A DNA stretch of 64,000 bases from Bacillales bacterium (GTDB lineage Bacteria > Bacillota_I > Bacilli_A > RF39 > UBA660). The stretch is taken from positions 1,115 to 65,114 of the forward strand of contig JAEEVN010000003.1 in assembly GCA_016290885.1 (NCBI GenBank). Direction: 5' to 3'. Positions 6,903-42,432 of the stretch are shown here, in pieces. Each line of letters opens with the position of its first letter. Positions within the stretch are counted from its first letter, which is position 1. Position numbers and translations under genes: made by a program. The notes under the pieces were generated by a model. That model was given only the letters and a program-made list of their open reading frames with translations. It searched no databases and was not told the DNA's origin.

Positions 6903-6925
6903 AAAAGTGGAAAAATCCACTTTTT
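6903..6925 (-). terminator. Hairpin terminator between hsp20 and pyk
   Basis: AAGTGGA-ttttt-TCCACTT flanked by A/T runs, so it could act in both directions. Confidence 0.55.
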
Positions 6926-7304: not shown

Positions 7305-7354
7305 AAACATCACTCCTTTTTTTGTTACTAAGGGTTTTACACCTTACAAATATA

Positions 7355-7382
7355 ATTATACTCAAAAATTAGCACTTGTCAA
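7355..7382 (-). promoter_or_regulatory. SigA-type promoter of hsp20, embedded in the CIRCE operator
   Basis: Minus strand has TTGACA (7382-7377), a 16-nt spacer, then TATAAT (7360-7355). The -35 box lies inside the CIRCE spacer. Confidence 0.6.
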
Positions 7383-7395
7383 TAGAGAGTGCTAA
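7369..7395 (-). promoter_or_regulatory. CIRCE inverted repeat (HrcA operator)
   Basis: TTAGCACTT-gtcaataga-GAGTGCTAA, against the consensus TTAGCACTC-N9-GAGTGCTAA. Confidence 0.85.
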
Positions 7396-7408
7396 TTTTA
7401 CACATAAA

Positions 7409-7431
7409 AAAGAAAACTATTTCTAGTTTTC
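7409..7431 (-). terminator. Terminator closing the T4SS operon
   Basis: GAAAACTA-gaaa-TAGTTTTC plus a T-run on the minus strand, overlapping the coupling-protein stop codon. Confidence 0.55.
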
Positions 7432-9689
7432 TATTCATCAAAGAAATCATCAAAGAAGTCATCATAATCAGATTCATCTTTAACTGGTTTCTTCTCTTCT
7501 TTATCTTTTAACTCAAAATTTTCTAAGTTAATATCATTGCTTGGGATAATTTCAGAAACATTTGGTTCTTTTTCACTAAGTTTTTCCACAGGTTTATATG
7601 TTAGATCCTCTTTTGGCTCTGATTCTGGAGCTTTTGGAGGTTCAGAAACAGGTTTCTCAGTGTCCTTAAGTTCAGGTGTTGAAGCAGGTTCTTGTGTAAC
7701 GCTTGCTTGTGTTTCTTTTTGTTTCTCTTTTTCACGTCTTTCTTCCTCTTCAATAGCTGCAATTTGCTTATCTATGTTCTTAATTAATTCATCAATGTCT
7801 TGACTGCTACCAAATGAAGTGTTTGAATTATCCATTGGTGTTGGTGCAGTTGGTGTTGGTGCTGGAGTTGGACTTGATGGCATACCACCGAATCCTGGCA
7901 TACCTCCAAAACCTGGCATTCCACCAAATCCTGGTGCATTATTCATTCCAGGCCCCATTGCTTCGCTCTTTTTCTTTTTAACAAAATCTTTAACACTGAA
8001 TGTTTTTACTTCAGTCATTTGTCTTTCAGGATATTCAACATCTTGTCCATATAATGTTGCTCCTACTCCAAAACCGAAGTCTGTATTATAATCCATTCTT
8101 AGCTTTCCTTTATAAGGAGGGCATCTATGGCGAACTAATACATATTCATCAGGTTTCATTCTTTGAAGCTCTGATATAGTAACAAGAGGTCTTGTTTCTT
8201 CTTTTTTATCTTTACCTACTCTAACTATCTTATCACCACATAATTTACTTATTTCTTCTAAGGCACTTAATTCTCCTGTTAATAAGTAAATAGTATTTAT
8301 ACAGTTACCTCTGATAGTTTGAGCATCTTCTTTACCATATGTTTTATCTAATTGGGCAAAGTTTTGGATTATAAATGTAAATTTAATATGACGAGATCTT
8401 GCTGCAGTAACCATAGTAGCAATATCCTTTATTTTAGGCATATTTGCAAACTCATCTAGTAAGAAGTTAGTTCTTACTGGAAGAGCTCCACCATGTTTAT
8501 ATGCAGTAGATATTAAACATTCATAACATTGCTTAATAAATATAGTTGCTAAGCTATGATATGTTGTTTTTTCATCTTGAATTATCATAAATAATGCTGT
8601 TGGTCTTTCACCAATAGAAGCCATATCAAAATCGTTTTTAGAAAGCATTTCTGATAAGTTTCTAGTAACAGCTAGTGTTTTAACTTTTTGTTGTAATACA
8701 GTCATGATACCTGCTTTAGTTTCATCTGCTGTTGTAACAGTACCTGCCATATTAATTGCAACAGGACTAGTTGGATCTTGCATCTTATAATATTCTTTCA
8801 TATAAGTAGATGCTCCATATCTTTCTTCACCTTGATTAATCATTAAGTTAATACTATTAATGTTAACTTCTTCAAGTGGTGCATCTTGGAATAATGCAAG
8901 TCCTAAACCAGTTAAATAATCTGCTGCTGCATTTTGCCAGAATGGATCTTGACCATGTCCATCAACAACTATATTAGTAGATAAGTCATTTAAAAGCTCA
9001 TTAGCTTTATCATAATTACCTTCTTTTTGATATTTATAAGGAAGATCATAAGGATTCCAACAGCTACCTCTTTGAGGTTCACGGAAGTTTAATACTATTA
9101 TTTGATATCCTGCATCCTTTAATATCTTATAATTATCTTCATATATTTCACCCTTAGGGTCTGTAATAACAATTGATTCTTTTGCTTTAATTAAATGTTT
9201 CATTGTAGGATTAACAATACCTGCAGTTTTACCAGAACCAGTAGCACCTATAACAAGAGTATGCATATTAGAATTATCTACGTAAGCACTATCCTTATCA
9301 TATATAATAGGAGTTCCACCTACGCTAGCAGTTTTATCAGCAAAAGGAATTCTAACTACTTCTTTAGCAGTCATTATTTCTTTATCTTTTGCCCATCTAG
9401 AATAGCCATTTTCTTTAGGTAAATCAGTAAACCCAAATCCTTTATCTCTTTCAAAGAAATAAGAAGTTGTAGATCCAAAAACAGTACCTACTACAGCAAG
9501 CCAAATTACTACTGTCAATGCAAATGAACTACCATTTAATTCCTTAAAAAAATTTAATCCTGATGGAACACCATCATGTAATATTGATAATACGTTGGAA
9601 ACACATAATGCTATTATTAAAAATACAAAAATCGCCATAATTACAAAAGCAACTACATCTTTCTTTTCTGCACGAAATTTTAATTTCAT
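7431..9689 (-). CDS. Type IV coupling protein (VirD4/TraG family) with a long low-complexity C-terminal tail
   Basis: Two N-terminal TM helices, Walker A VIGATGSGKTAG, Walker B-like FLLDEFANMP. The C-terminal ~200 aa are Pro/Glu/Lys-rich, contain a GFGGMP x3 repeat, and end in DYDDFFDDFFDE. Confidence 0.9.
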   Translation of the reverse strand: MKLKFRAEKKDVVAFVIMAIFVFLIIALCVSNVLSILHDGVPSGLNFFKELNGSSFALTVVIWLAVVGTVFGSTTSYFFERDKGFGFTDLPKENGYSRWAKDKEIMTAKEVVRIPFADKTASVGGTPIIYDKDSAYVDNSNMHTLVIGATGSGKTAGIVNPTMKHLIKAKESIVITDPKGEIYEDNYKILKDAGYQIIVLNFREPQRGSCWNPYDLPYKYQKEGNYDKANELLNDLSTNIVVDGHGQDPFWQNAAADYLTGLGLALFQDAPLEEVNINSINLMINQGEERYGASTYMKEYYKMQDPTSPVAINMAGTVTTADETKAGIMTVLQQKVKTLAVTRNLSEMLSKNDFDMASIGERPTALFMIIQDEKTTYHSLATIFIKQCYECLISTAYKHGGALPVRTNFLLDEFANMPKIKDIATMVTAARSRHIKFTFIIQNFAQLDKTYGKEDAQTIRGNCINTIYLLTGELSALEEISKLCGDKIVRVGKDKKEETRPLVTISELQRMKPDEYVLVRHRCPPYKGKLRMDYNTDFGFGVGATLYGQDVEYPERQMTEVKTFSVKDFVKKKKSEAMGPGMNNAPGFGGMPGFGGMPGFGGMPSSPTPAPTPTAPTPMDNSNTSFGSSQDIDELIKNIDKQIAAIEEEERREKEKQKETQASVTQEPASTPELKDTEKPVSEPPKAPESEPKEDLTYKPVEKLSEKEPNVSEIIPSNDINLENFELKDKEEKKPVKDESDYDDFFDDFFDE
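7879..7932 (-). repeat. 18-nt imperfect tandem repeat x3 (encodes GFGGMP x3)
   Basis: ggcataccaccgaatcct / ggcatacctccaaaacct / ggcattccaccaaatcct. Confidence 0.8.
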
Positions 9690-9726
9690 TTTATCATCTC
9701 CATAATATATTTATTATATCAAAAAA

Positions 9727-9750
9727 AAGGTATTTTTTAAATACCTTTAT
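9727..9750 (-). terminator. Internal hairpin/terminator between the wall-remodelling gene and the T4CP gene
   Basis: AAAGGTATTT-aaaa-AATACCTTT plus a T-run on the minus strand. TATAAT and GGAG signals follow it, before the T4CP ATG. Confidence 0.5.
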
Positions 9751-9753
9751 TAA

Positions 9754-12700
9754 TTATTGAGTCGCAGATCCACAATTAGATATGGAAATAACTTTTTGAT
9801 TAGTATTCCAATCTTGTTTTACTTGGGTTGCACTTGTTAATCCTTTATATAAGTAGTCATTATCAAATTCAAACTCTATTACACTTAAGGATTTACCGCT
9901 TAAATGTCCATAACAAGCAGGATCTGTTGCTTTAGAACTCATACATAATTCTTTATTATCAACAGGGCTCCCATTATTAGTATTTAGATAATCTTTTTCA
10001 TCAGCTACTATTAAAGGTAATGATGTACCATCTTCTAAATTAGCATATACTAAATCTCCGATTGTACCAAAATTCTTAGTTATTGCAGCCAAATATCTAT
10101 CAGCACCATTAACTTTAACAACAGCTATACCATTCTTATAACGTGCTCCGTCTTCTAACCATAGTTTATGTACTTTTTTCTGTGGAGAACTTCCATCTAT
10201 ACCTAAACTACCAAATCCTCTTTTATCATAGAAAGTAACAGTATAGTTTATCTGAGGCATTTCAAATATACTACTTGGAAGTGCTAATGTTGTTCCTTTT
10301 CCACCATCAAGTTTACAATCCGCAGTGGCAGTCGCTCTACAAGTGATAAACATATTAACTGGGTTTAAGAACGAATGATTCTTTGAATCATATATTCCAA
10401 AGTGAAGTGATGCTTTTTCACCATCTTCTGATGCATATACATCCCCAATATGCCCAATAACTTGGCCTTTTGTAACTACATCTCCTGTTTTTAATGTTAA
10501 ATCGTCCGGTTTTAAACCACCATAATATACTCTGATTTTTGAGATTTTATTCTTAAATAGACTACTAATAATTCCTTTTCCTGCAGCACTATTAGTATAT
10601 TGGACCATATAATCTATTACAACCCAGCCACCATCTACAGCTTTATCACTGTATGTACCATCTACAGTTGACTGATATACTTTTCCATCATATATAGAAT
10701 AGACATTAGCACCCTCAGTTACTCCAACGCTATCTGCATTTAAATCTACACCGTTATGCATTTTTCCTATAAACAAGCCATAATTTTCTCGAGCATTAAA
10801 TGTAACAGTTTGCCCAATTGTTAGATCAACAGGTGGAGTTAACTCCGCTAATAAATCTAGATTAATATCTCCAATACAATCAGTATAATCTTGCGCAGAT
10901 TCATCAGTTTTATAAATAGTATCAAACATTTCCTTAGTCAATCTTATTTCAGTAGCAATGCGCTTTACTTTTTCCTCTAATTCATCACCTGTTAGTTTAT
11001 TACCACTACTATCAAGTAGTAACGGATTAAACTCAGGCATTTTTCTTATATAATCATTTACTAGATATTCTTCATATTTTTCTTCATCGAATTTATATTC
11101 ATAATATTTTACAGTAATAGAATCTAATAATTTTTTACCATAACTTATAATATCGTTTGTCCCAACATCGCTATTGTCATCATCTTCATCACTACTAAAA
11201 AGTTCAAAAATTGTTCCTGTTAGTTTATCTATATCAATTTCAATACTCTTTACTTCATAAAAACAATTAATGAATGTTATCAATAAATTACTTAATGCAA
11301 GTCCAACTTCATCATTTTTGCCATTTTGGAAAGCTAACTGTAATGAATTCCAGTTTTCAGTACCGGAAAAAACATCAAGCATATCATTATATAATTGATA
11401 TTCTGAAACCAAGGTCTCAAATAATGGCCCAAAACCGGTCATATGTGCAACGCAATAAGCAATCAATAATGGAATAATATCTTTTATATTATTCATTTCA
11501 TTATTTATCCTTTTAACGCACATTTCTATATACTCTGTTAACGTTATTTCCTTTGTTTGCTTCTTCCCTAGGAATTGGTGTTTAGCAAGATCACGTAGTC
11601 TATAAAGTTTATTCGCAGAATAAACTAATCCACCACCACCTGTAGTAGTTTTTGATTCTTTTAGCCACATTTTTGCTAAATTAATTCCAACTTTGACTGC
11701 ATCACAGTACTTTGAATCACTTTCTTCATCAATATTCAATGAAGCACAAACTTTACTATTATCCGCAGTATAGATTCCTAAATCCCCATAAAATATATCT
11801 GTATAATATAGTGTTGCCATAATATAAGGAAAGTCAATTTCTTCGCCATAATGTGTATTTAAATAATTAACTTCATCATAAAATGCTTCTTCACTATCTT
11901 TAAATCCTAATCCTGATATAAAGTTATTAACTTTTTCTGTATTATCAGGATCTAATACTTCATTCATGAAAAACATTGGAGATAAAATATATGACACTAT
12001 TAATGTTCCAATTGTAAGGAATAATAAAACAAGTACTCCGAATACTTTAGGATCAAAAATTTTAAAAATTGCCTTTAAAGCTTCTTTTCCCTTACCAAGT
12101 TTATCCGCTGCGTCATTAAAAAACTTATCGGAATCAAACTTTTTGGACAAATCTTGTATTCTTTTTCCTCTAGCTTGATTAAGTTTCCCTCTTTCTCTAA
12201 GTTTATCAGCAAATGATTTATCAGTAGTTTTCTTTGCGGCATTTGTCGCAGTTTTATTTGCTTTTGCAGCATTTTTTGCCGCCCTCAAAGCTTCTTTTTC
12301 AGCCTTAGCTTCTGCTTTGGCAGCATCCGCAGTTGCCTTTGCAGTAGCTGCTCCGCTTTCTGCAGCTATAGAGGCTGCCTTTTGCCCTTCTGCTAGACCT
12401 TTATGAACTCCTGCCACGGTTTGACCAGTAGCACTTATTGCAGCTCCAGCATAAGGTATACTAGCTGCTTTCTGAGCTGCCGCCTTTTCTGCGTCTGCAG
12501 CCCTACTCGATGCTTGAGCAATATTCTTCGAAGTTGCTGCTGCTTTTTTAGTAGCTGCAGCAGATTTAGAGGCTACGTCAGCTGCTTTCTCTCTTGCTGC
12601 TGCTGCTTTTTCTGCTGCTGCTGTCCCTGATTCAGCGATTGAAGAAGCAGTGCTGCCAACGTTGGCAGCTGTCTTAGTGGCTTTTTCACCACCATCAAGC

Positions 12701-12873
12701 ATATCTGCAAATTTTTCTTCGCCTTTACCTATTGTCTCTATAGTTTTTCCAACATCATTCATGCCTTGTTGGACATTATCAAATTTTTCACCTAAGGTTT
12801 GTTTCTTTCGTTGAGGTGTCTCAACTTGCTGTTCCTCTTGTTGTGACGAAACTACTGCTTCTTCATCGTTCAT
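9754..12873 (-). CDS. T4SS-associated bitopic cell-wall-remodelling protein with a degenerate M23/LytM domain
   Basis: 1039 aa. An Ala/Lys-rich N-terminal ~290 aa is followed by one TM (VFGVLVLLFLTIGTLIVSYIL) and a large ectodomain. The M23 core has HNGVDL (HxxxD), but YGGL replaces YxHL and SLHFG replaces HLHFG. A further ~230-aa Cys-containing C-terminal domain follows. Confidence 0.7.
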   Translation of the reverse strand: MNDEEAVVSSQQEEQQVETPQRKKQTLGEKFDNVQQGMNDVGKTIETIGKGEEKFADMLDGGEKATKTAANVGSTASSIAESGTAAAEKAAAAREKAADVASKSAAATKKAAATSKNIAQASSRAADAEKAAAQKAASIPYAGAAISATGQTVAGVHKGLAEGQKAASIAAESGAATAKATADAAKAEAKAEKEALRAAKNAAKANKTATNAAKKTTDKSFADKLRERGKLNQARGKRIQDLSKKFDSDKFFNDAADKLGKGKEALKAIFKIFDPKVFGVLVLLFLTIGTLIVSYILSPMFFMNEVLDPDNTEKVNNFISGLGFKDSEEAFYDEVNYLNTHYGEEIDFPYIMATLYYTDIFYGDLGIYTADNSKVCASLNIDEESDSKYCDAVKVGINLAKMWLKESKTTTGGGGLVYSANKLYRLRDLAKHQFLGKKQTKEITLTEYIEMCVKRINNEMNNIKDIIPLLIAYCVAHMTGFGPLFETLVSEYQLYNDMLDVFSGTENWNSLQLAFQNGKNDEVGLALSNLLITFINCFYEVKSIEIDIDKLTGTIFELFSSDEDDDNSDVGTNDIISYGKKLLDSITVKYYEYKFDEEKYEEYLVNDYIRKMPEFNPLLLDSSGNKLTGDELEEKVKRIATEIRLTKEMFDTIYKTDESAQDYTDCIGDINLDLLAELTPPVDLTIGQTVTFNARENYGLFIGKMHNGVDLNADSVGVTEGANVYSIYDGKVYQSTVDGTYSDKAVDGGWVVIDYMVQYTNSAAGKGIISSLFKNKISKIRVYYGGLKPDDLTLKTGDVVTKGQVIGHIGDVYASEDGEKASLHFGIYDSKNHSFLNPVNMFITCRATATADCKLDGGKGTTLALPSSIFEMPQINYTVTFYDKRGFGSLGIDGSSPQKKVHKLWLEDGARYKNGIAVVKVNGADRYLAAITKNFGTIGDLVYANLEDGTSLPLIVADEKDYLNTNNGSPVDNKELCMSSKATDPACYGHLSGKSLSVIEFEFDNDYLYKGLTSATQVKQDWNTNQKVISISNCGSATQ

Positions 12874-12909
12874 TCTATCACCCGATTCTTTTTTAGTTTA
12901 TTTTAAATA

Positions 12910-14700
12910 TTATAATCCACCTTTACTTCCGAAAGAATCTAATTCTGCTTGAGTAGCAACTACAGAAATTTGTAATTTCTTGTTACCACAAATAAATAAT
13001 CCTTCCCCTTGATTATAACGTTTAATATTTTCTTTTTCATTATCATTTAAGTCAATTAAGTTACTTAAATCTTCAACAGCTTGTTTCTTCAAATTCATTA
13101 CTAAATAGTAAGATGAGTTATCAAAAATAGCTTTACCTTGTTGTAAAACTGCTGGAGCAGAGAAATCACTTGGTTCTTGTGTAATAATAATTGTACCAGT
13201 GTTATATTTTCTTGCTCTTCTTTGAACATTAGCTAAGAAATTAGCACCTAATTGGTTATTATTACCAAGCAACATATGTGCTTCATCTACTTCTAGAATT
13301 GAGTTTATCTTAGTATCTAGGCATAAACTCCAAGCATGTTTTAATATATTGAAGAATAATGCATTTCTAACATTTTCTTCAGCATTCATTATTTCTCTAA
13401 TATTAAATACTATAAAATTAGATTTTGGAGTAATTGTAGTCTTACCATCAAAGTAATGTTCTAATCCTCCATATGTTAATGGTCTAATCTTTAATTCAAG
13501 TCTTTCCATTAAATCTCTTTCTTTAGTAGCTTCACCATAAGAAAGAATTCTTCCTCTAATAGTTTTATAAACATCACTAAAAGTAGGATAATCTTCTGAT
13601 TTTAATGTACTAAAATCTGTATTAACATTTATATTAAATCTTTGATATGTTTCTATTACGACTTCATTAAATAAGTTTAATAGGTCTTCTTCTAATGATG
13701 GATCATAATACATCATAAATGTTTTTAATGTTTGAATAGCGCTTACAAAAACAGCTTTACCTACTTCTGCTCCCGCTTCTTCTTTATCAACATCTATAAC
13801 TATTTCAAGTGGGTTAATCATTCCATATTCTCCACCTAAACCTAAGTTAATAAAATCTCCATCATATAACTTAGTCATATCTTCAAGTTCACCTTCTGGG
13901 TCAATTGCTACTATCTTATATTCATTTCTAATATGAGTTCTAAGTAATAATTTAGCAGCAGTTGATTTACCTGAACCTGAAGTACCAAGTAATATCATAT
14001 TGGCATTATTTCTATTATGTTCCTTCTTTATTTGGTATAAGAATTGGTTAAATAATATAATACCACCAGAGAAATCTACACCAAGTAAACAAGATAATCC
14101 TGGGTCTTTAACACAGTCAAATACGAAAGGATACATAGCAGCAAGAGTTGGAGATGGAATTGGAGTGCCAATTCTATCTTCAAGATCTTGCTTATCAAAT
14201 ATAGGCAAACAAGACTTGAATACTTTTTCTTGTTCAAATCTTAAAGGAATTGCTCTCATTTGCATTCCTTCTAATGTATCTTTTATTTCTACTTTCTTTC
14301 TCTCTAATTCCTCTTTTGTTTTTGCAGTAACCATTATATGTAGTTGGAAATCAAAAACTCTTGATTGATTATTAGTAATTGTAGTTACAAAATCATTCAA
14401 TGAATCATAATCTTGCCTTAATTTTTCTTGAACAGTAACATCATTTTCTCTTTGATATCTGTCTTGAATATCTGCTAGTTGTCTATTAAGCATTTTAGCA
14501 AGAACACTGAATGCTATAGGAATATGCTTAGCAACAATTTTTACGCCAGACATGCCTGATATTAATGATGCTAAGTATCCAGGAAAAATATTTGGTGGAT
14601 AAGATATAACTGTTAAAATAGTTGCATAACTATCACTAATAAAGAAATCATTTGCATTAAATGTAATCCCCTTTGGGGCAATCTCTTTTCTTAAACTCAT
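12910..14700 (-). CDS. VirB4-family T4SS ATPase, ATPase-containing C-terminal ~3/4
   Basis: Walker A LLGTSGSGKST, Walker B ILEVDEAHMLL. Position next to a PrgI-like gene. The ATG at 14700 overlaps the upstream stop (ATGA). Confidence 0.85.
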   Translation of the reverse strand: MSLRKEIAPKGITFNANDFFISDSYATILTVISYPPNIFPGYLASLISGMSGVKIVAKHIPIAFSVLAKMLNRQLADIQDRYQRENDVTVQEKLRQDYDSLNDFVTTITNNQSRVFDFQLHIMVTAKTKEELERKKVEIKDTLEGMQMRAIPLRFEQEKVFKSCLPIFDKQDLEDRIGTPIPSPTLAAMYPFVFDCVKDPGLSCLLGVDFSGGIILFNQFLYQIKKEHNRNNANMILLGTSGSGKSTAAKLLLRTHIRNEYKIVAIDPEGELEDMTKLYDGDFINLGLGGEYGMINPLEIVIDVDKEEAGAEVGKAVFVSAIQTLKTFMMYYDPSLEEDLLNLFNEVVIETYQRFNINVNTDFSTLKSEDYPTFSDVYKTIRGRILSYGEATKERDLMERLELKIRPLTYGGLEHYFDGKTTITPKSNFIVFNIREIMNAEENVRNALFFNILKHAWSLCLDTKINSILEVDEAHMLLGNNNQLGANFLANVQRRARKYNTGTIIITQEPSDFSAPAVLQQGKAIFDNSSYYLVMNLKKQAVEDLSNLIDLNDNEKENIKRYNQGEGLFICGNKKLQISVVATQAELDSFGSKGGL

Positions 14701-15239
14701 TCTGTAGTCACTGTCCTTTCTGTAAATGTTTTTCCATCATTTAAGAAATTATCTAGTAACATTCTTAAATCTTCATTTGATACTTGAGCACCTATTAAAC
14801 CTGACTGTGCAAGGTTACTTATAAGCCCTCTTACATTTTTTGTAATTTCTTCTTGAGTATCTGCTTTAAATAACACAAAATATTCTGTATCAACAACATC
14901 GTTTTGAACAAAGCCATCAGCTTTAGCTATATCATCGATGATTAATTTTCTAATCGCAGGTCTACTAACATTGTTTAATTGTAATTCTAATTGTGAAACA
15001 TATAAATCTATGTTTGTAGGTCTATCCGCTACTATTAACCAAAATTCAAAATCAATTTGGTTATAAAATTTTCTTAATTCATCAATAACACGGTTTTGTG
15101 ATAATTCATCCATAATAAAGATATTTTTAGGTAATACCTTTATTCCAGAAACTAACTTTTTATTATCTAAAACGATAACATTGTTATTAATTTCTTTAAC
15201 TGTTATCCAGTTTTCAGTACTTGAACTATTCTGATTCAT
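14697..15239 (-). CDS. Stand-alone VirB4 N-terminal-domain-like protein (split VirB4)
   Basis: 180 aa. The WITVKEINNNVIVLDNKKLVSGIKVLPKNIFIMDELSQNRVIDELRKFY pattern resembles the N-terminal domain of Firmicutes VirB4 proteins (from memory of the family). 180 + 596 aa is close to the usual full-length size. Confidence 0.55.
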   Translation of the reverse strand: MNQNSSSTENWITVKEINNNVIVLDNKKLVSGIKVLPKNIFIMDELSQNRVIDELRKFYNQIDFEFWLIVADRPTNIDLYVSQLELQLNNVSRPAIRKLIIDDIAKADGFVQNDVVDTEYFVLFKADTQEEITKNVRGLISNLAQSGLIGAQVSNEDLRMLLDNFLNDGKTFTERTVTTE

Positions 15240-15537
15240 CTTCCTTCACACTCCATCCTTCCCATTTATAATTCCTTCTGTTTGAAAAAAATCTTATTGT
15301 TTCTTGTATAACCACCAATACATTATGATAATTTGGTATTGGTATAACAAGGAATGCGCATATTAGTAATGGTGCTAAAGCTATTACTAAACCTTGTAAT
15401 GTTTTTGGTGCAGCTATTAATATAATTAATACTGACACAACCAATCCTGAACTTGCTAATATTAAATCAAATGGTCTAAATATATTAAATATTAATTTAC
15501 CACTTTTAGGATTAGCAGGTATTATATATAAATTCAT
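15226..15537 (-). CDS. PrgI/VirB3-like small two-TM T4SS protein
   Basis: 103 aa with two TM helices, sitting directly upstream of VirB4 with a 14-nt overlap. Confidence 0.55.
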   Translation of the reverse strand: MNLYIIPANPKSGKLIFNIFRPFDLILASSGLVVSVLIILIAAPKTLQGLVIALAPLLICAFLVIPIPNYHNVLVVIQETIRFFSNRRNYKWEGWSVKEDESE

Positions 15538-15555
15538 CTAATATCACACTCCTTT

Positions 15556-23822: not shown

Positions 23823-24905
23823 CTACTTAATTATTATATTTAAATATTTTGATTCCATACCAATCATTATTGATTCATAATCTAAATCTAGTTCTACTAT
23901 GTCTCCTACTTTATAATCGATATCTGATTCATCAACGTCGATTATAGTATGATCTGATGATCCACCTAATATAAATGATTTCTTATCATGTGGATAAAGT
24001 TGTAGATATCCTCCGATATCACATTTACCTAATGCTACTATAATTCTCTTTTTATTTCCTCTATCTTCGTATTCAATCTTATTACCAAATCCATCTACTA
24101 CTATTTCTCCAATAGGATATGTTGGTTTAGTATTTGATTCTATTACTTCTGCTTCTACAGTAAATACATTTCTTAATCCTGGTAAATAATTCTTCCATAC
24201 TTTAAATTCTTTAATGTATTCAGGAGTAGTGAATAAACCTCCTACTCTTAAATGATTAATTTCTTTTGGCATATTACCATCGATTAATAATTCAACTGAA
24301 GTAGTAGCACCACCAGAAACAACTTCTAGTGTTTCACCTATTTTTTCTTCTATCATATGTTTAGTTTCGATTAATTTACTTAAATTAGTAACAGTAGGTC
24401 TAATTGAACCATAACATGTTAAATTAGTTCCTATTCCTTTAATATGAATATTCTTTAGATTAGTTTTTATATAATCTGCTAATGAAACTAAATCATTTTG
24501 ATCTAATATTCCTTCTCTTAAATCCCCTAAATCTTCCATAAGTATAACATCTTGAATTTTGTTATATTTACTAGCAACTTCGTTCAACTTATCTAGTGTA
24601 TCACGTTCTGAAATTAATGTTGTATCAACATATTTAATAACTTCCTCTAATTCACTAATCATAGGAATTCTAATTAGTAATGTTTTATCTTCTGGATAAA
24701 GATTCTTTATGTTTTTTAAATGTACTACTCTTGAAGATGCATATTCATTTATACCTTCTTCATGAAGAATAGTTATTAATTCTGGCATTGCGTGATATAC
24801 TTTTACAACTGCACATAAACTAACATTATTATCATTACAAATTTTTTTTATAATTCTAGCATTATTTCTGAATGCTTCTTTATCTATTATTAATTTTGGA
24901 TACAT
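23823..24905 (-). CDS. Alanine/ornithine racemase family PLP-dependent enzyme
   Basis: MYPKLIIDKEAFRNNARIIKKICNDNNVSLCAVVKVYHAMPEL resembles the ornithine-racemase-type N-terminus, with the PLP lysine in VVK. 360 aa. Confidence 0.7.
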   Translation of the reverse strand: MYPKLIIDKEAFRNNARIIKKICNDNNVSLCAVVKVYHAMPELITILHEEGINEYASSRVVHLKNIKNLYPEDKTLLIRIPMISELEEVIKYVDTTLISERDTLDKLNEVASKYNKIQDVILMEDLGDLREGILDQNDLVSLADYIKTNLKNIHIKGIGTNLTCYGSIRPTVTNLSKLIETKHMIEEKIGETLEVVSGGATTSVELLIDGNMPKEINHLRVGGLFTTPEYIKEFKVWKNYLPGLRNVFTVEAEVIESNTKPTYPIGEIVVDGFGNKIEYEDRGNKKRIIVALGKCDIGGYLQLYPHDKKSFILGGSSDHTIIDVDESDIDYKVGDIVELDLDYESIMIGMESKYLNIIIK

Positions 24906-24913: not shown

Positions 24914-25630
24914 CTATCCATGATCTCCCATGACAAATCTAGTTCCAGGTTTTTTAAAGTGAGCTACTCTTTCTTTGTAAGCCTTTATTAAATCTTCTTC
25001 ATATATTAATTCATCTTTTAAACCTAGCTCTTTTAATAAAAATTTAGTAAATTTAGGATTTATTATTAAGAATGGTCCAAGTAAATAAGTTCCATAAAAG
25101 TTTTTATAATGAATTCCTTCGTTAGGATTCTTTATATCACTACTATAACCATCTTTAGTATCAATAAAACCATTTTCTATATTTTTGCATATAGAATAAT
25201 GGTTTTTATGACCTATTATTTCTATATTTTTATAATTTCCTATATACCAAGATACATATTTATGATTCATATCTTTTTCTATATAATAATTAAATAACCC
25301 TAATCCATTAAATTTATTATTATTTTCTACTATATATGATGAGAATATTTCTATTGCATTACCTGTTATTAAGAAAAATACATTTTCTTCTAATAATTCT
25401 TTTATTTTATCTTTATATTTAGTTAATTTTTCTATACTTGGTATTATTTTACTATCAGGCATAGAACCCATATATATCATATCTACTTTATTTTTTACAA
25501 AATATGGTTCTTTTCCGTATGAAGTATAAACCACTTTTATATCTTTATTGCATCTTTTAAAAAACTCTATTTGAAATAAATCTGCATATACATTTTGAAA
25601 TTCAGGATAAATAACTTCAATAGTCTTCAT
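24914..25630 (-). CDS. GatD-like (CobQ-type amidotransferase fold) protein lacking the catalytic Cys and His
   Basis: GLGLFNYY and EGIHYKNFYGTYLLGP blocks match GatD. ITGNA stands where the (I/L)CGG nucleophile elbow is expected, and YLLGP stands where YLHGP is expected. 1-nt overlap with the MurT-like gene. Confidence 0.7.
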   Translation of the reverse strand: MKTIEVIYPEFQNVYADLFQIEFFKRCNKDIKVVYTSYGKEPYFVKNKVDMIYMGSMPDSKIIPSIEKLTKYKDKIKELLEENVFFLITGNAIEIFSSYIVENNNKFNGLGLFNYYIEKDMNHKYVSWYIGNYKNIEIIGHKNHYSICKNIENGFIDTKDGYSSDIKNPNEGIHYKNFYGTYLLGPFLIINPKFTKFLLKELGLKDELIYEEDLIKAYKERVAHFKKPGTRFVMGDHG

Positions 25631-26979
25631 TATTCCACCTCATTTCTTATACGTTCTTTAAGAGATTCTACTACTTCTCTACTCATTGGTCTTTCTTCTA
25701 CTTCATAAAGAACATATATATCAGATTTCTTATCTAGATTTAATAATTTATAAGCCTCTTTATAATCTTTAGATACTTCTATTTTTTCTTCTGGTACTCC
25801 AGCTAATTTAAGTCTTACTATATAGTCTAAATATCTAGGTCCAGTTACTACTATTTTTTCTAGATTTAGTTTATTTAATAATTCAAAATCACTATCATAA
25901 AGCCATGTGATAGTTTCTGATGAATATGGATTATCATATACTTCATCAAGTAATAAAACTATTTGTTTTTTATTATTTAATTTAGTTAAATTTTCTAATA
26001 CTGTGGATAAAGCACTAGAATTTTGTCCTTTAGCCATTTGAGAATATATATTTATTCCTTTTTCTACTTCTAAATTTTCTCTAGATTTAGGAATAAAAGA
26101 TTTCTTTAATTCTTCTTGAATAAATTTAAAGTCATATCCTAATTGTTTTAATAATACTATTACTAAAGATTCATTATATATATTAAATAAGTTCTCTGAT
26201 AATTTAGGATATTCCACTCCATTTAAAACAAATGATTTATCATCAATCTTTGTTACTCTATAATCACCTTTAAATGATTCTAATTTACAATTAGGACATT
26301 TAAATTTACCAATATGTCTATAATGTTTATATTCATAATTAACTACTGTATTACATTTTGGACACACTATAAAATCTGGTGAAATATTGTTATATACTTC
26401 ATCATTATTTATTTTATCAATTGATACAAATATCTTTTTATTATCTTTTCCTAAAAAACTACTTATAGGATCATCTGCATTTAATATTAATACTGAGTCC
26501 TTAGTCTTATTAACACCTTTATTTATTTTATCAAATATAAATTCCGGATAAGAATTTCTTCTTATAGAATCGCGACATATATTTGTTACTATTACATAAT
26601 TAGGTTTTATTTCTGGAAAAGTAGTATCACTAGTCATTTCATCGCATTCAAGTATTGCAACATCTTTATTTGGTTTGTTAAATATATTAACTGAATCAAT
26701 CAAACATCTTATATGTCCTGCTCTTGTATTTGCATTCCATATATTAAACCCAATCTTTTTACCATCATTTTTTAATATATTATATATTAGATGAGTTACA
26801 GTAGTCTTACCATTTGTACCAGTTACTGCTATTACAGTTTTAGGTTTATTTACTTTTGATAATACTTCTGGGCATATTCTTGCTGCTAATAATCCTGCTC
26901 TATCGCTATTTGCTTGTCCAAATATTTTTGATATGAATAAATAAAATTTACTAGCCCATAACGCTAAATAAAATTTCAT
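25630..26979 (-). CDS. MurT-like Mur ligase family protein
   Basis: GTNGKTT P-loop, LNADDP, a Cys4 ribbon CPKCN...CPNC, and a C-terminal TWLYDSDFE block as in the MurT DUF1727 domain. Confidence 0.75.
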   Translation of the reverse strand: MKFYLALWASKFYLFISKIFGQANSDRAGLLAARICPEVLSKVNKPKTVIAVTGTNGKTTVTHLIYNILKNDGKKIGFNIWNANTRAGHIRCLIDSVNIFNKPNKDVAILECDEMTSDTTFPEIKPNYVIVTNICRDSIRRNSYPEFIFDKINKGVNKTKDSVLILNADDPISSFLGKDNKKIFVSIDKINNDEVYNNISPDFIVCPKCNTVVNYEYKHYRHIGKFKCPNCKLESFKGDYRVTKIDDKSFVLNGVEYPKLSENLFNIYNESLVIVLLKQLGYDFKFIQEELKKSFIPKSRENLEVEKGINIYSQMAKGQNSSALSTVLENLTKLNNKKQIVLLLDEVYDNPYSSETITWLYDSDFELLNKLNLEKIVVTGPRYLDYIVRLKLAGVPEEKIEVSKDYKEAYKLLNLDKKSDIYVLYEVEERPMSREVVESLKERIRNEVE

Positions 26980-26987: not shown

Positions 26988-28241
26988 CTAAAGATTTTTA
27001 ACTTCAATTATAGATTCTTTAATTATATTAAGACCCTTTACTAAAGTTTCTTTATCTATTGTAAGTGCTGGTAATATTTTAAGAACTGAATCTCCTCTAC
27101 CTGCTAATTCTATTACTAAGCCTTTTTCAAAGCATTTATCTAATACTGCTCTAGATAATTTACCATCTTTAAACTCGATACCCCAAATTAAACCTATACC
27201 TCTATAAGTTTCACCTTCATCAAGTAATGGTTTAATTTCTCTTTCTAAGTATTCTTTAACTAATCCTTCTTTTTCTTTTACTTGTCCATCAACATTTTGC
27301 ATTTTATTTAATTCTAGTCCTGCTTTAGCAGCTACTATAGATACTTGTGATCCTCTAAATGTTCCGTTATGTTCACCTGGTCCAAATTTATCATATTCAG
27401 GTTTAATTAAAGTAAGTGCAAATGGAAGACCATATCCTCCAATAGATTTACTCATACATACCATATCAGGTACTATATTAGCTCTTTCAAATGAGAAGAA
27501 AGTACCTGTTCTAGAACATCCAACTTGTACGTCATCTACTATTAATAATATTCCAAAATCATCGCATAATTTTCTTAATCCTTGTAAGAATTCCACGCTA
27601 AATACATTTATTCCACCTTCAGCTTGTACTGTTTCTACTATTATAGCTGCTGGCTTTTCTACACCAGAATGATCATCTTCTAATAAAGTTCTCATATACT
27701 TAATAGTATCAAATCCAGGAATATAATCTGGAGTTGGAATATGAGTAACATTATTAAGTGATACTCCAGCTCCTCCTCTAGCATAACTTTCTGTAGTTAA
27801 TGCAAGTGTACCAAGAGTCATACCATGGAATGCACCCATTAATGCCCAAATCTCACTTCTTCCAGTTACTTTTCTAGCTAGCTTTAATGCTGCTTCAACA
27901 GCATTAGTACCAGTTGGTCCAGTAAACATAATTCTATAATCTAATCCTTTTGGAATTAAATATTCTTCTTCAAAATATTTAATAAATTCTTCTTTTGCTA
28001 TTGCAAACATATCAAGTGAATGTGTAATACCATCATTTGAAATATATTCTAATATTCTTTCTTTTATATAATCTGGATTATGCCCATAGTTAAGAGCACC
28101 TGCTCCATCAAAAAAATCTATATATCTATTACCATCAACGTCTGTGTAATAACTTCCTTTTGCTGATTTCATTACTACTGGCCATTTTCTACAGTAGCTT
28201 CTTACATTTGATTCATATTTTTCAAATACTTCTTTACCCAT
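26988..28241 (-). CDS. Diaminobutyrate--2-oxoglutarate transaminase-like class III aminotransferase (EctB/Dat-like)
   Basis: FEKYESNVRSYCRKWPVV, YIDFFDGAGALNYGHN, GITHSLDM, TGPTGTNAVEAALKLAR, and the PLP lysine context CMSKSIGG. Confidence 0.75.
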   Translation of the reverse strand: MGKEVFEKYESNVRSYCRKWPVVMKSAKGSYYTDVDGNRYIDFFDGAGALNYGHNPDYIKERILEYISNDGITHSLDMFAIAKEEFIKYFEEEYLIPKGLDYRIMFTGPTGTNAVEAALKLARKVTGRSEIWALMGAFHGMTLGTLALTTESYARGGAGVSLNNVTHIPTPDYIPGFDTIKYMRTLLEDDHSGVEKPAAIIVETVQAEGGINVFSVEFLQGLRKLCDDFGILLIVDDVQVGCSRTGTFFSFERANIVPDMVCMSKSIGGYGLPFALTLIKPEYDKFGPGEHNGTFRGSQVSIVAAKAGLELNKMQNVDGQVKEKEGLVKEYLEREIKPLLDEGETYRGIGLIWGIEFKDGKLSRAVLDKCFEKGLVIELAGRGDSVLKILPALTIDKETLVKGLNIIKESIIEVKNL

Positions 28242-31097: not shown

Positions 31098-32444
31098 CTA
31101 TTCTTTTTGATAATTAGTGAAAGTAACAGTACTTCCTTTAAATATAAATTCTATATCTTTAGTAGGACCATTTCTGTTTTTACCTATAATAAATTCTGTA
31201 ATACTTGCTTCAGGGTTAGCAACTTCTTTACCCATAGCTTCTTTATTATAAACATCATCTCTATATAAGAAACCTATAAGGTCGGCATCTTGTTCTATAG
31301 AGCCTGATTCTCTTAAGTCACTCATCATTGGTCTTTTATTTGGTCTTTGTTCAACAGCACGAGATAATTGTGCAAGTGCTATTACTGGGCAATGTAATTC
31401 CATAGCCATCATTTTTAGACCTCTAGAAATTTCTGCTACTTCTTGTTGTCTATTTGCTTGGTTCTTAGCTGATCCTGTAATCAATTGTAAGTAGTCGATT
31501 ACTACAAGTCCAAGTCCTTCATCTTTAGAAGCAAGTCTTCTACATTTACTTCTAATATCAGAAATAGTTGCACCTGGAGTATCATCAATCTTTATATTAG
31601 TATCAGCTAGTATACTAACTGCTTCACTTAATCTCTTCCAATCATTATTATCAAAATTACCATTTCTGAATTTAGCAAAGTTAATTTGACCTATTGAACT
31701 AAGCATACGATTAACTAATTGCTCTGCACTCATTTCAAAGTTGAATATTGCTACATTCTTTTTAGTATTTCTAGCTACATAAGTTGCTATATTTAATGCA
31801 AATGCAGTTTTACCCATACCAGGACGAGCTGCAATAATGTATAGTTCGTTTTCATGTAATCCACTAGTTAATTTATCATATTCATAATAACCTGTTGCAA
31901 GTCCTGTTATTTCACTTTTGTTTTCACTTAGTTTTTCTAAGTCTGATTGTGCTTTAAATACAACATCTTGAATATTTCTAAATTCAGACGTTTTTCTTTT
32001 TTGTACAACATTAAATATTTTTGATTCTGCACTATCCAAAATTTCATTTACTGGGGAATTTTCAGTATATGAAGCATTAGATATTTCATTAGAAGCATTT
32101 ATTAATTTTCTAAGTACTGATTTATCATGAACAATACCTATATAATAGTCTATATTAGCTGCACTAGGTACAAAATTAGCTATTTCTACTAAGTATTCTA
32201 TATTACCAACAGATGATAATTCTTTAGCACTTTCTAATCTATCAGTAACTATAGTTATATCTACAGGAATACCTTCACTATTTAAGTCTGCTAATACTCT
32301 ATATATTTTTTGGTTAGCTTCTAAATAAAAATCTTCTTCAGTTAATTCATCACATATTTTTTGAAGAGCATCTTTAGATAAAAATGCTGATCCTAATACT
32401 GATTGTTCTGCTTCCTTGCTATATGGAATATTTCTTTTATCCAT
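31098..32444 (-). CDS. dnaB: Replicative DNA helicase DnaB
   Basis: PYSKEAEQSVLGS, Walker A AARPGMGKTAF, IDYLQL, SGSIEQDAD. Confidence 0.95.
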   Translation of the reverse strand: MDKRNIPYSKEAEQSVLGSAFLSKDALQKICDELTEEDFYLEANQKIYRVLADLNSEGIPVDITIVTDRLESAKELSSVGNIEYLVEIANFVPSAANIDYYIGIVHDKSVLRKLINASNEISNASYTENSPVNEILDSAESKIFNVVQKRKTSEFRNIQDVVFKAQSDLEKLSENKSEITGLATGYYEYDKLTSGLHENELYIIAARPGMGKTAFALNIATYVARNTKKNVAIFNFEMSAEQLVNRMLSSIGQINFAKFRNGNFDNNDWKRLSEAVSILADTNIKIDDTPGATISDIRSKCRRLASKDEGLGLVVIDYLQLITGSAKNQANRQQEVAEISRGLKMMAMELHCPVIALAQLSRAVEQRPNKRPMMSDLRESGSIEQDADLIGFLYRDDVYNKEAMGKEVANPEASITEFIIGKNRNGPTKDIEFIFKGSTVTFTNYQKE

Positions 32445-39455: not shown

Positions 39456-40343
39456 CTATTCATCTATATCAAAATTCATTATTTCTAGTATTCTATTTAG
39501 ATCTTGTACATTTTCAAAACTAATAGTAATTTTTTTATCACTAATTTTTACTTTAGTACCTAATTTTTCTTTTAGTTTTCTCTCTAAAACATCATACTTT
39601 CCATCTTTTGGTTTTCTTATAACAGGTGATGATTTTTTAATATCTGTATTAGAAGATATTTCTTCAAGTTCCCTAACACTTAAATCTTGTCTTATAACTT
39701 GATCTGCTAATTCATTTATTTTATCAATATTTTCTAATTTACTAAGTACTCTAGCATGTCCCATACTAATTTTATTATAAAGTACTAAATCTTGAACATT
39801 AGTAGGTAATTTTAATAGACCTAACATATTAGTTATATGACTTCTACTCTTACCAACTCTCCTAGCTAGTTCATCTTGAGTAATATTAGATGCATCAATT
39901 ATAGATTTATAAGCTTTTGCTTCTTCTATAGCAGTTAAATCTTCTCTTTGAAGATTTTCTAGTAAGCTTATTTGCATCATTTCATCATCTGAGAAATCTT
40001 CTATAATTGCAGGGATAGTAGTTAATCCAGCTTTTTTAGATGCTCTAAATCTTCTTTCTCCTGCTACTATATCATAACCTTTAACAGTCTTTTTAACTAT
40101 AATTGGTTGAAATACACCATGTTCTTTAATAGAAGCAGCTAATTCATTTAATGCTTCTTCATCAAATTTCTTTCTAGGTTGGTAAGGATTTGGTCTTAAA
40201 TCACTTAAATTAAGTTCTACTATAGAATTATTTTGTCTTGCATTATCAACTATATCATTTTCAATATCTTCAAATGTATTGATATTTTCATCACTAAATA
40301 ATTGTTCTAGTCCTCTACCTAGTGCCTTTCTCTTCTCTTGCAT
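39456..40343 (-). CDS. parB: Chromosome partitioning protein ParB/Spo0J
   Basis: ALGRGLEQLF, NPYQPRK, IVAGERRFRA, and the HTH region. The start is ambiguous (ATG 40343 or TTG 40352). Confidence 0.9.
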   Translation of the reverse strand: MQEKRKALGRGLEQLFSDENINTFEDIENDIVDNARQNNSIVELNLSDLRPNPYQPRKKFDEEALNELAASIKEHGVFQPIIVKKTVKGYDIVAGERRFRASKKAGLTTIPAIIEDFSDDEMMQISLLENLQREDLTAIEEAKAYKSIIDASNITQDELARRVGKSRSHITNMLGLLKLPTNVQDLVLYNKISMGHARVLSKLENIDKINELADQVIRQDLSVRELEEISSNTDIKKSSPVIRKPKDGKYDVLERKLKEKLGTKVKISDKKITISFENVQDLNRILEIMNFDIDE

Positions 40344-41118
40344 TTCTATCAATTACCTCCTTTGCTAAATTAATATACGCAGTAGATCCTTTACTCTTTG
40401 AGTTATAGTATGATATTGGTTTACCATGACTTGGAGCTTCTGCTAGTACTATTAATCTTGGTACTATTGTATCATAAACTTTTTCTTTAAAGAAACTTCT
40501 TATATTCTCTACTACATCAAGACCAAGAATAGTTCTTGAATCTAACATAGTAAGAACAACTCCCTCTATTTCAAGATTAGGATTAACTTTCTTTCTAGCA
40601 ACTTGTATTGTATTTAATAATTGCATAATTCCTTCTAGTGCAAAGAATTCACATTGTACTGGAATCATTACTGAATTAGATGCTGTTAATGCATTTGTAG
40701 TTATTGTTCCTAAACTTGGAGGACAATCTATTAATATATAGTCATAATTATCTTTAATTTCATCTAATACTCTTTTTAATTGAGCACCTTTTACTAGAGT
40801 TGGATCTTCTTTTTGCATATTATTTAGTTCCATATCTAGTACTGCTAGATTTATACTAGCAGGCATAATATCTAAATTTTTAAACTTAGTTTTTACTATT
40901 ACTTCACTAGCTGTTTTCTTATTTATTAAAGCTTCATTAATACTAGCTGTTAAAGTACCTTTTTCTACTCCTACGCCTGTAGTAGCATTACCTTGTGGAT
41001 CTATATCTACTAATAGAACCTTTTTATCTAATAGTCCTAATGATGCTGCTAAATTTATACTAGTAGTAGTTTTCCCAACTCCACCTTTTTGATTTACTAA
41101 AGATATTATTTTGCCCAT
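40315..41118 (-). CDS. soj: ParA/Soj partitioning ATPase
   Basis: Deviant Walker A NQKGGVGKTTT, plus DCPPSLG. Confidence 0.9.
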   Translation of the reverse strand: MGKIISLVNQKGGVGKTTTSINLAASLGLLDKKVLLVDIDPQGNATTGVGVEKGTLTASINEALINKKTASEVIVKTKFKNLDIMPASINLAVLDMELNNMQKEDPTLVKGAQLKRVLDEIKDNYDYILIDCPPSLGTITTNALTASNSVMIPVQCEFFALEGIMQLLNTIQVARKKVNPNLEIEGVVLTMLDSRTILGLDVVENIRSFFKEKVYDTIVPRLIVLAEAPSHGKPISYYNSKSKGSTAYINLAKEVIDRNAREEKGTR

Positions 41119-42008: not shown

Positions 42009-42106
42009 TTCTCTTACCTCTCGTGTAAGTAATAGGTTAACACCAAAATATAATTAAGTCAATTGATATATACTTATTTTTTGTAATATGTTAAAATATT
42101 TATACA

Positions 42107-42226
42107 TCTTATAAAGAGAGACGGAGGGACTAGCCCTATGAAGTCTCACCAACCTATTAAGTTAGGTGGTAATGCTAGATCTATAAGATATCTTTAAAGG
42201 CTCAGATATCTGAGTCTTTTTCTTTT
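42107..42226 (+). promoter_or_regulatory. S-box (SAM-I-type) riboswitch with intrinsic terminator
   Basis: TCTTATAAAGAGAGACGGAGGGACTAGCCCTATGAAGTCTCACCAACC...AGGTGGTAATGC...TATAAGA matches the S-box core (P1 TCTTATA/TATAAGA, GGAGGGA...GCCC, GAGAC/GTCTC). P4 looks very short. The terminator is GGCTCAG-atat-CTGAGTC plus TTTTTCTTTT at 42199-42226. Confidence 0.7.
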
Positions 42227-42251: not shown

Positions 42252-42419
42252 ATGAATAAGACGGTGGAAAACAAAATAAGGAATGCCTCTATTGAAGAAT
42301 TAGATAAATGGATAGATAGTCTGCCAAGAACTTTTATGAAGGCAATATTATATCAACAAATAAAATCCGTTAGACCAGACTATGTACCGAAACATAAAAG
42401 AAAAAAACTAGTTATTTAA
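42252..42419 (+). CDS. Unannotated 55-aa ORF downstream of the SAM riboswitch
   Basis: AAAGGAG RBS 5 nt upstream. Translation: MNKTVENKIRNASIEELDKWIDSLPRTFMKAILYQQIKSVRPDYVPKHKRKKLVI. Converges on def with an 8-nt overlap. No similarity recognised. Confidence 0.45.
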   Translation: MNKTVENKIRNASIEELDKWIDSLPRTFMKAILYQQIKSVRPDYVPKHKRKKLVI

Positions 42420-42432
42420 CTAGTTTTTTTGG
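42402..42432. terminator. Bidirectional hairpin between the small ORF and def
   Basis: AAAAAAACTAGTTA-tt-TAACTAGTTTTTTT, palindromic with A/T runs on both sides. Confidence 0.55.

Follow-up and report, generated by a model that had tools for sequence, protein, structure and literature searches.

A 64,000-nucleotide stretch of chromosomal DNA (hereafter the window) from a Bacillales bacterium, a Firmicute of 25% GC (GenBank assembly GCA_016290885.1, contig JAEEVN010000003.1, positions 1,115 to 65,114), encodes a MurT-like ATP-dependent ligase followed by a GatD-like protein that appears to be a pseudo-glutaminase. In the aligned sequences the nucleophilic Cys, the catalytic His, the GGG motif and, in the MurT-like partner, the triad Asp are all replaced. 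A preliminary description of the second gene had proposed a pseudo-glutaminase on the basis of the Cys and His, and the protein is referred to here as pseudo-GatD. MurT/GatD carries out an essential, drug-targeted cell-wall step in Gram-positive pathogens, with a mechanism defined by a Cys-His-Asp triad formed across the two subunits. The pair described here belongs to a large clade in which triad and oxyanion hole are systematically replaced and the ligase is left intact.

Pseudo-GatD and its former catalytic residues

The 238-amino acid translation of open reading frame (ORF) 24914-25630 (-) contains the GatD-like blocks GLGLFNYY and EGIHYKNFYGTYLLGP from which it had been recognized. Its match to Pfam GATase_3 is marginal (31.3 bits against a cutoff of 27), and the best solved relatives are the GatD proteins of S. 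aureus, S. pyogenes and S. pneumoniae (E 2e-15 for the single sequence and 1e-25 when a family profile is used), identity to canonical GatD being only 22-28%. Scores against the NCBIfam GatD equivalog models are below cutoff (NF052463, 62.9 bits against 450; NF045636, 36.9 against 400). An AlphaFold2 (AF2) model of high confidence (predicted local distance difference test score, 92.8) returned S. aureus GatD (6h5e_A, 5n9m_A) as the top Foldseek matches with a template modelling (TM) score of 0.82.

GatD residues C94 and H189 are needed for glutaminase activity and MurT D349 for lipid II amidation, mutation of any of the three abolishing or strongly reducing activity (PMC6113224; PMC6085368; PMC3266927). 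In S. aureus D349 of MurT joins C94 and H189 of GatD to form the triad (PMC6113224), and the GGG motif of GatD forms the oxyanion hole (PMC6085368). The corresponding positions of the window proteins are given in Table 1. At the former nucleophile elbow, C94 corresponds to T89 by pairwise phmmer alignment and by an ungapped count back from the GLG block, and to G90 by profile alignment and MAFFT, which place a one-residue indel on the other side and leave T89 at position -1. In the AF2 model residues 85-88 form a strand and 90-96 a helix, with T89 at their junction, a placement that favours the T89 register. The alignments show no nucleophile Cys whichever register is used. The proposed Cys to Thr replacement is therefore borne out as regards loss of the Cys, and the identity of the new residue is register-dependent (T89 or G90), Thr being probable on the structural model. 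At the second catalytic position phmmer, MAFFT and hmmsearch/hmmalign all align YLLGP with the S. aureus YLHGP, so that H189 corresponds to L184 as first suggested. The only two Cys residues, C27 and C148, both lie outside the elbow, in agreement with the preliminary description. Masking of a catalytic Cys or His by misalignment was considered and rejected, as four alignment methods concur and neither C27 nor C148 is at the elbow. We infer that the MurT-like/pseudo-GatD complex would generate no ammonia from glutamine via the known mechanism.

Table 1. Positions of the operon genes, key residues and other features in the window
Feature	Position	Strand	Remarks
EctB-type diaminobutyrate--2-oxoglutarate transaminase	26988..28241	-	Gene 1; 8 nt before MurT-like gene
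MurT-like ATP-dependent ligase, 449 amino acids	25630..26979	-	Gene 2; Mur_ligase_M, Cys4 Zn ribbon and MurT_C
P-loop GTNGKT of MurT-like ligase	26803..26820	-	ATP site intact
E355-T356 of MurT-like ligase	25912..25917	-	At S. aureus R348-D349; third triad residue gone
Translational coupling TAATG	25628..25641	-	MurT-like stop TAA 25632-25630 overlaps pseudo-GatD start ATG 25630-25628
Pseudo-GatD, 238 amino acids	24914..25630	-	Gene 3; class I (CobQ-type) glutamine-amidotransferase fold, predicted without catalytic residues
G55-S56-M57	25460..25468	-	In place of GGG oxyanion hole
Former nucleophile elbow I88-T-G-N-A-I-E94	25349..25369	-	S. aureus ICGGYQF; no Cys
T181-Y-L-L184-G-P186	25073..25090	-	L184 in place of catalytic H189; G-P of MurT-contact motif kept
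Pyridoxal phosphate racemase related to ornithine racemase Orr	23823..24905	-	Gene 4; Pfam Ala_racemase_N; 8-nt gaps both sides
ATP-grasp ligase, ATPgrasp_ST family	22807..23814	-	Gene 5 (last); Pfam PF14397, 170 bits
VirD4/TraG-type coupling protein	7431-9689	-	
1039-amino acid protein with M23 peptidase domain	9754-12873	-	
VirB4/TraG-like P-loop ATPase	12910-14700	-	
dnaB	31098-32444	-	Chromosomal landmark
parA/parB	39456-41118	-	Chromosomal landmark
Ribosomal protein L10 leader	59633-59759	-	Chromosomal landmark

Conservation of the replacements and distribution of the family

Residue frequencies were taken from 160 distinct pseudo-GatD homologues encoded in about 160 fetched loci (L numbers below) of species-representative genomes, those for the elbow being counted in the profile register. 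The elbow motif is T-G-N-[AS]-x-E (T 151, G 155, N 151 and E 157 of 160), with Thr replaced by Ile, Val or Ser in about 5% of members, and none of the 160 has Cys in the C94 column. The His column holds only hydrophobic residues (L 81, I 75, V 4), the oxyanion motif reads G-[STPAC]-[ML], and G and P of the interface motif, HGP having become an LGP type, are each present in 159/160. The glutamine-capturing Arg of GatD (S. pneumoniae R142) is kept in 148/160 (92%) and is Lys in the window protein; the N-x-Y-x-D motif and EGIHYKN block of GatD are also retained. Among 120 homologues listed in a first homology search, with identity down to 38%, none had the His. When 1.84 billion cluster representatives (50% identity) were searched exhaustively with a profile, 286 clusters had E <= 1e-30, and the Cys and His combination occurred in none of 148 new sequences and in none of 268 database proteins overall. 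The comparison with characterised GatD suggested as a check in the preliminary description yielded no Cys/His pair at the catalytic positions in either the 160 locus homologues or the 268 database proteins. Matching stretches were confirmed in three scans of species-representative genomes (175, 389 and 82; the sets overlap). On these alignments the shared replacements are judged far beyond chance.

That pseudo-GatD retains catalysis by way of other residues, for example as a hydrolase or transferase acting on glutamine or another amide with Thr89 and a conserved Glu, is considered very improbable. T89, G90, N91 and E94 rank with the best conserved residues in the family, and Thr nucleophiles occur in other amidohydrolase families; against this, the general base is gone, His, MurT Asp and oxyanion glycines all being lost, the Thr position tolerates the substitutions noted above, and a class I amidotransferase that uses Thr as nucleophile is not known to us.

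The ratio of nonsynonymous to synonymous substitution rates (dN/dS) of pseudo-GatD was 0.13 relative to the orthologue in L001, from a rumen metagenome-assembled genome (MAG), with 0.10-0.18 for the neighbouring genes. Pseudo-GatD is under purifying selection and is not decaying. A pseudogene or assembly artefact was rejected because the ORF is intact, its dN/dS resembles that of its neighbours and an orthologous operon, 81-87% identical, is present in an Erysipelotrichaceae MAG.

Carriers were found in Erysipelotrichaceae, 'Tenericutes'-labelled Bacilli MAGs, Oscillospirales including Pseudoruminococcus massiliensis, Lachnospiraceae, Coriobacteriia and Anaerovoracaceae (Mogibacterium timidum, M. 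diversum, Lentihominibacter hominis, Brotomerdimonas butyrica), and every one is a host-associated anaerobe of gut, rumen or mouth. No Negativicutes or Microbacteriaceae were among the carriers retrieved. MAG titles naming Bacteroides, Muribaculaceae or Flexilinea were disregarded for taxonomy as they probably reflect mis-binned contigs. Cultured carriers exist, namely M. timidum, L. hominis, B. butyrica, P. massiliensis, Collinsella species and Lancefieldella parvula/rimae; in L. parvula and L. rimae (formerly Atopobium) the pair is unfused. The profile search also returned four matches to natural MurT-like::pseudo-GatD fusions, one type of which, about 750 amino acids in length, occurs in Collinsella (L170 544-3768; L174, Collinsella provencensis, 6001-8391). 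On metagenome contigs the fused gene is followed by a CofE-family gene (F420-0:gamma-glutamyl ligase, PF01996) for another amide-forming ligase; to our knowledge cofactor F420 is not expected in the Collinsella lineage.

Database entries for the homologues are named only 'CobQ-like glutamine amidotransferase family enzyme' or 'hypothetical protein', and the glutamine amidotransferase label is misleading for these proteins. No description of a pseudo-GatD family was found in the literature on MurT/GatD homologues, B-type peptidoglycan or polyamines, and there is no curated model for it, scores against the NCBIfam GatD and MurT models being far under their cutoffs.

The MurT-like partner ligase

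The MurT-like protein matches Pfam MurT_C (85.6 bits) and Mur_ligase_M (53 bits) and S. aureus MurT (E 2.5e-39), and scores 160.4 and 152.1 bits against NCBIfam MurT equivalogs with a cutoff of 800. Across 90 family members, residues identical to those of S. aureus MurT and 90-100% conserved comprise the P-loop, N85, E108, D110, E111, N130, D134, R138, N267, R298, K315, N316 and the four Zn-ribbon Cys. N85 of MurT has been proposed to bind the acceptor carboxylate (PMC6085368). The D349 column of the same members contains T (52), N (22), V (5), A (4) and S (2), with no Asp among the counts listed, and the R348 column is Glu in 92%. F139 and Q135 of MurT are replaced by Asn and Ser, the DNAAD-GRD loop is not kept and the loops differ by subfamily; new near-invariant Glu residues are present in the MurT-like protein and pseudo-GatD alike. 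Conservation of the ligase residues leads us to expect an active MurT-like ligase, with the glutaminase half-site gone from both subunits.

The pair resembles the MurT/GatD isoglutaminyl synthases of known structure (S. aureus 6gs2/6h5e, S. pneumoniae 6fqb, S. pyogenes 9sq9) in its overlapping genes with murT preceding gatD, in the GatD fold, in the MurT central domain, Cys4 Zn ribbon and MurT_C, and in the ligase residues and G-P motif. It differs from them in the replacement of C94, H189, GGG and MurT D349, R348, F139 and Q135, in the unconserved DNAAD loop, and in having an ATP-grasp ligase, a diaminobutyrate transaminase and racemases as frequent neighbours. As judged from the alignments the ligase side is MurT-like, and the pair lacks what defines GatD (Cys, His, oxyanion hole and an equivalog-level score) together with Asp349 and DNAAD of MurT. 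No second, canonical GatD/MurT is encoded within the window. The 'MurT-like' protein of the pseudomurein literature is archaeal and has no GatD partner.

The operon and its counterparts in other genomes

Pseudo-GatD is the third of five tightly packed genes (28241-22807, -). Intergenic gaps are 8 nt, except that the MurT-like and pseudo-GatD genes overlap instead, with a Shine-Dalgarno sequence, GAGGTGG, at 25641-25635 (-) ahead of the TAATG overlap. No terminator-like site was found within the operon and it contains no ectoine or decarboxylase gene. The same operon is present in the closest genome, the MAG of an uncultured rumen Erysipelotrichaceae, with protein identities of 76-87%. The transaminase scores above the NCBIfam cutoffs (PRK09264, 585.4 bits against 438; TIGR02407, 565.1 against 552.2) and is the predicted source of L-2,4-diaminobutyrate. 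The racemase, at 344.8 bits against a cutoff of 480 for NCBIfam racem_Orr, is a relative of Orr and not an equivalog, and is predicted to make a D-diamino acid. The ATP-grasp protein is predicted to be the second amide-bond-forming enzyme of the operon. No solved relatives of the ATP-grasp and racemase proteins were found by sequence.

The MurT-like and pseudo-GatD genes are adjacent in nearly all fetched loci where both were found, supporting an obligate pair and a predicted complex. The suggestion in the preliminary description that pseudo-GatD is retained as a structural partner of the ligase is supported by this adjacency, the conserved G-P motif, the TAATG overlap, the natural fusions and the low dN/dS. 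Among 160 distinct pairs an ATPgrasp_ST ligase is encoded within three genes of the pair in 68 and an EctB-type transaminase in 12, the latter falling into about five sequence groups. In L143, L141 and L075 a MurT-like/pseudo-GatD/transaminase trio is surrounded by unrelated housekeeping genes, and no further ligase is encoded within 5-7 kb. Alignment columns enriched in transaminase-linked pairs were examined as candidate specificity determinants and rejected, since they trace to one clade. The Orr-like racemase gene adjoins the pair in the window, in the orthologue locus L001 (= L012) and in L053, directly upstream in the last, and an Alr-like racemase gene is adjacent in four loci. A SpoVB/MurJ-like flippase gene lies immediately upstream in 17 loci. 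Two diverged pseudo pairs occur in tandem in L018, L023, L054, L056, L068, L098, L112 and L119 (e.g. L054 7586-13248), in Anaerovoracaceae and some other lineages, both GatD-like copies being without Cys and His; in most of these loci an ATP-grasp gene lies between or beside the pairs, giving three ATP-dependent ligases in a row. The remaining recurrent neighbours are housekeeping genes.

Three further arrangements were observed. In L019-L022, L025 and L071 (e.g. L019 2797-9900), of Lachnospiraceae type, the pair and an ATP-grasp gene lie beside genes for an esterase/lipase-like protein, a VanR-like response regulator and two proteins with no family match, an arrangement suggestive of an inducible locus for cell-wall modification. 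In seven 'Bacilli/Tenericutes' MAG loci a 255-amino acid protein with no Pfam or NCBIfam match is encoded directly beside the pair (e.g. L006 2485-3252; L008 5837-6610; L003 10079-10846), and an Alr-like racemase gene shares the locus in three of the seven (L006, L040, L045). In P. massiliensis (L002) a divergent gene for an AsnB-type glutamine-dependent amidotransferase (4410-6281, -) is next to the MurT-like/pseudo-GatD/ATP-grasp genes; AsnB-type enzymes amidate meso-diaminopimelic acid (meso-DAP) or D-Asp in other bacteria.

Some of these data bear on whether the chemistry is retained and directed at another acceptor, such as the meso-DAP epsilon-carboxyl, a D-Asp bridge (through its alpha-carboxyl), the C-terminus of the stem or a surface polymer other than peptidoglycan, with ammonia or an amine as nucleophile. 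Consistent with such a change are the MurT equivalog score far under cutoff (160 against 800), the tandem paralogous pairs, which suggest more than one target, the Pfam description of ATPgrasp_ST as sugar-transfer-associated and the AsnB-type gene adjoining the pair in P. massiliensis. It is nevertheless considered unlikely, given that N85 and the other residues of the central domain held in common with S. aureus MurT are 90-100% conserved, that lipid II flippase-like genes recur and that glycosyltransferase or polymer genes were not recurrent near the pair in the fetched loci.

Possible function of the pair in peptidoglycan modification

A dead pseudo-glutaminase implies that the nucleophile is not glutamine-derived ammonia. 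The reading we favour, at somewhat less than even confidence, is that the pair ligates a non-ammonia amine, here probably 2,4-diaminobutyrate, to a stem-peptide carboxylate, with pseudo-GatD as an obligatory non-catalytic partner. The five-gene operon would then tailor a peptidoglycan precursor. The MurT-like ligase would phosphorylate a stem-peptide carboxylate, by homology the D-Glu alpha-carboxyl of lipid II, and pseudo-GatD, keeping the fold and the MurT interface, would be required for the complex and hydrolyse no glutamine. 2,4-Diaminobutyrate made by the EctB-type transaminase would provide the attacking amino group, the Orr-like racemase probably converting it into the D-form. The resulting D-Glu(alpha)->diamino-acid branch would be of the kind known from group B peptidoglycans or alpha-carboxyl-substituted stems, and the ATP-grasp enzyme would extend it by another residue. 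The former glutamine pocket, with its substrate-capturing Arg/Lys kept and conserved Glu residues gained, may bind the donor. The preliminary description had seen the loss of glutaminase as fitting a different amine donor; the operon links to transaminase, racemases and a second ligase agree with that idea, which stays conditional, free ammonia being an equally simple source.

Ligation of such an amine best accounts for the recurrently linked transaminase and racemase genes, the tandem paralogues, the subfamily loops, the retained Arg and the new Glu residues. Tandem pairs and subfamily-specific loops are read as signs of diversified specificity, and by analogy the flippase-like neighbours and conserved central-domain residues would tie the pair to a peptidoglycan precursor, with lipid II D-Glu as acceptor. 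The Mur ligases MurC-F and pseudomurein pMur belong to the same superfamily and react in the same way, with ATP, an acyl-phosphate intermediate and an attacking amine, and take amino acids as nucleophiles, the activity proposed here for the MurT-like pair; unlike it they have no glutamine amidotransferase (GATase) partner or Zn ribbon, carry a UDP-binding domain at the N terminus and have soluble nucleotide precursors as substrates. In Enterococcus faecium the ATP-grasp D-aspartate ligase Asl(fm) is encoded beside the racemase Rac(fm), which supplies the D-amino acid for the side chain. The Orr-like racemase gene followed by an ATP-grasp gene in the window recalls this arrangement, the ATP-grasp family (ATPgrasp_ST here) and racemase fold being different. 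We know of no gene assigned to D-Glu polyamine attachment or to group B diamino-acid bridges. In the Schleifer and Kandler scheme diamino acids reportedly occupy the D-Glu-attached position of group B peptidoglycan. A group B schematic with a diamino acid at this position is given in PMC11382707, and D-Glu carries cadaverine and putrescine in Selenomonas and Veillonella (PMC12826042), so that both wall types resemble the proposed product in bearing an amine other than ammonia on the position-2 carboxyl.

Several observations weigh against ligation of a diamino acid. The transaminase accompanies only about 8% of pairs and racemases fewer, and no residue signature common to all transaminase-linked pairs was found. 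The racemase and ATP-grasp enzyme could form a separate side-chain module of Asl/Rac type that uses diaminobutyrate, the pair merely amidating. The hydrophobic Leu/Ile in place of His and Met in place of the third oxyanion Gly may mean that the pocket has been filled and not reused. Published peptidoglycan chemotypes were not found for Erysipelotrichaceae, Mogibacterium or Collinsella; the sole find was for Atopobium, whose peptidoglycan is listed as A4alpha and not group B (PMC11382707), which argues against a general link of the family to group B walls.

The principal alternative, regarded as somewhat less probable, is an ammonia-dependent lipid II amidation, in which D-Glu is converted to D-isoglutamine (isoGln) with free NH3/NH4+ from the habitat, pseudo-GatD is a scaffold only, and transaminase, racemase and ATP-grasp form a separate cross-bridge module. 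All carriers found are host-associated anaerobes and their habitats are ammonia-rich. The hydrophobic His to Leu/Ile and Gly to Met replacements fit a filled pocket, relaxation of the DNAAD loop is expected once the triad is unneeded, and the new acidic residues could recruit NH4+. Carbamoyl-phosphate synthetase I is the classic ammonia user with an inactive GATase-like domain; as in the pair described here a glutaminase module is kept non-catalytic after loss of the nucleophile Cys, the differences being that the synthase is unrelated, the enzyme eukaryotic and the nitrogen source known to be free ammonia. Walls of A4alpha type normally carry isoGln. Lancefieldella carries the family and, under its former name Atopobium, is the A4alpha genus cited above (PMC11382707).

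The closest experimental parallel to ammonia use is the S. aureus GatD-C94G/MurT complex (Munch et al. 2012), which has lost glutamine-dependent activity but works on free ammonia, showing NH3-dependent activity at pH 8.5 (PMC3266927). MurT alone is inactive even when given ammonia (PMC3266927; PMC6085368), so that a glutaminase-dead GatD is still required by its ligase. The mutant has Gly at the position occupied by Gly or Thr in the natural family, Gly being found at the C94 column in the profile register. It differs in retaining H189, GGG and MurT D349 and in using NH3 only at pH 8.5, NH4Cl at pH 7.5 not being used by the S. aureus enzyme (PMC3266927); the natural family has new conserved residues in place of H189, GGG and D349 and is under purifying selection. 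Use of free ammonia also leaves unexplained the EctB-type transaminase as immediate partner in about five independent groups with no other ligase nearby, and does not readily account for tandem diverged pseudo pairs or for the glutamine-capturing Arg in 92% of sequences.

Different subfamilies may use different donors, making the family heterogeneous. Extended to the whole family, diamino acid and amine ligation becomes a more tentative proposal: that the pairs are the missing enzymes attaching amino acids or diamines to the D-Glu alpha-carboxyl of the lipid-linked precursor, D- or L-2,4-diaminobutyrate here and ornithine, lysine or other amines elsewhere, with the glutamine pocket reused and a previously undescribed position-2-branched or group-B-like peptidoglycan in many gut, rumen and oral Firmicutes and Coriobacteriia. 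This is held as possible with considerable doubt. Were the nucleophile an amino acid or diamine, the long-unassigned ligase for D-Glu alpha-carboxyl substituents and bridges would be identified, and dominant gut anaerobes would contain unknown peptidoglycan chemotypes. Such chemotypes would bear on innate immune sensing, as the muramyl-dipeptide and D-Glu-DAP (iE-DAP) motifs sensed by NOD2 and NOD1, respectively, would be altered. Were it free ammonia, the pair would represent a natural glutamine-independent form of an essential enzyme with a pseudoenzyme scaffold.

Other features of the window

A SAM (S-adenosylmethionine) riboswitch at 42106-42189 (+), scoring 68.5 bits against a gathering score of 44.4, is on the other strand from nearly all window genes. 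It is followed only by a 55-amino acid ORF (42252-42419, +), after which transcription would proceed antisense into the peptide deformylase gene (42412-43011, -), with no methionine or cysteine gene downstream. The block at 7431-20795 (-) has a higher GC content (0.30-0.35, against about 0.25) and contains several ORFs with no Pfam match. Together with the conjugation-type genes of Table 1 it looks like an integrated conjugative element, ending about 2 kb from the operon. Within the block, 19449-20321 (-) and 20427-20795 (-) encode adjacent paralogous small membrane proteins with a common conserved N-terminal region of about 100 amino acids and no Pfam match, the longer having an additional Ser/Gly-rich linker and Cys-rich C-terminal domain; these paralogues may serve the conjugative element as pilin-like or surface proteins.

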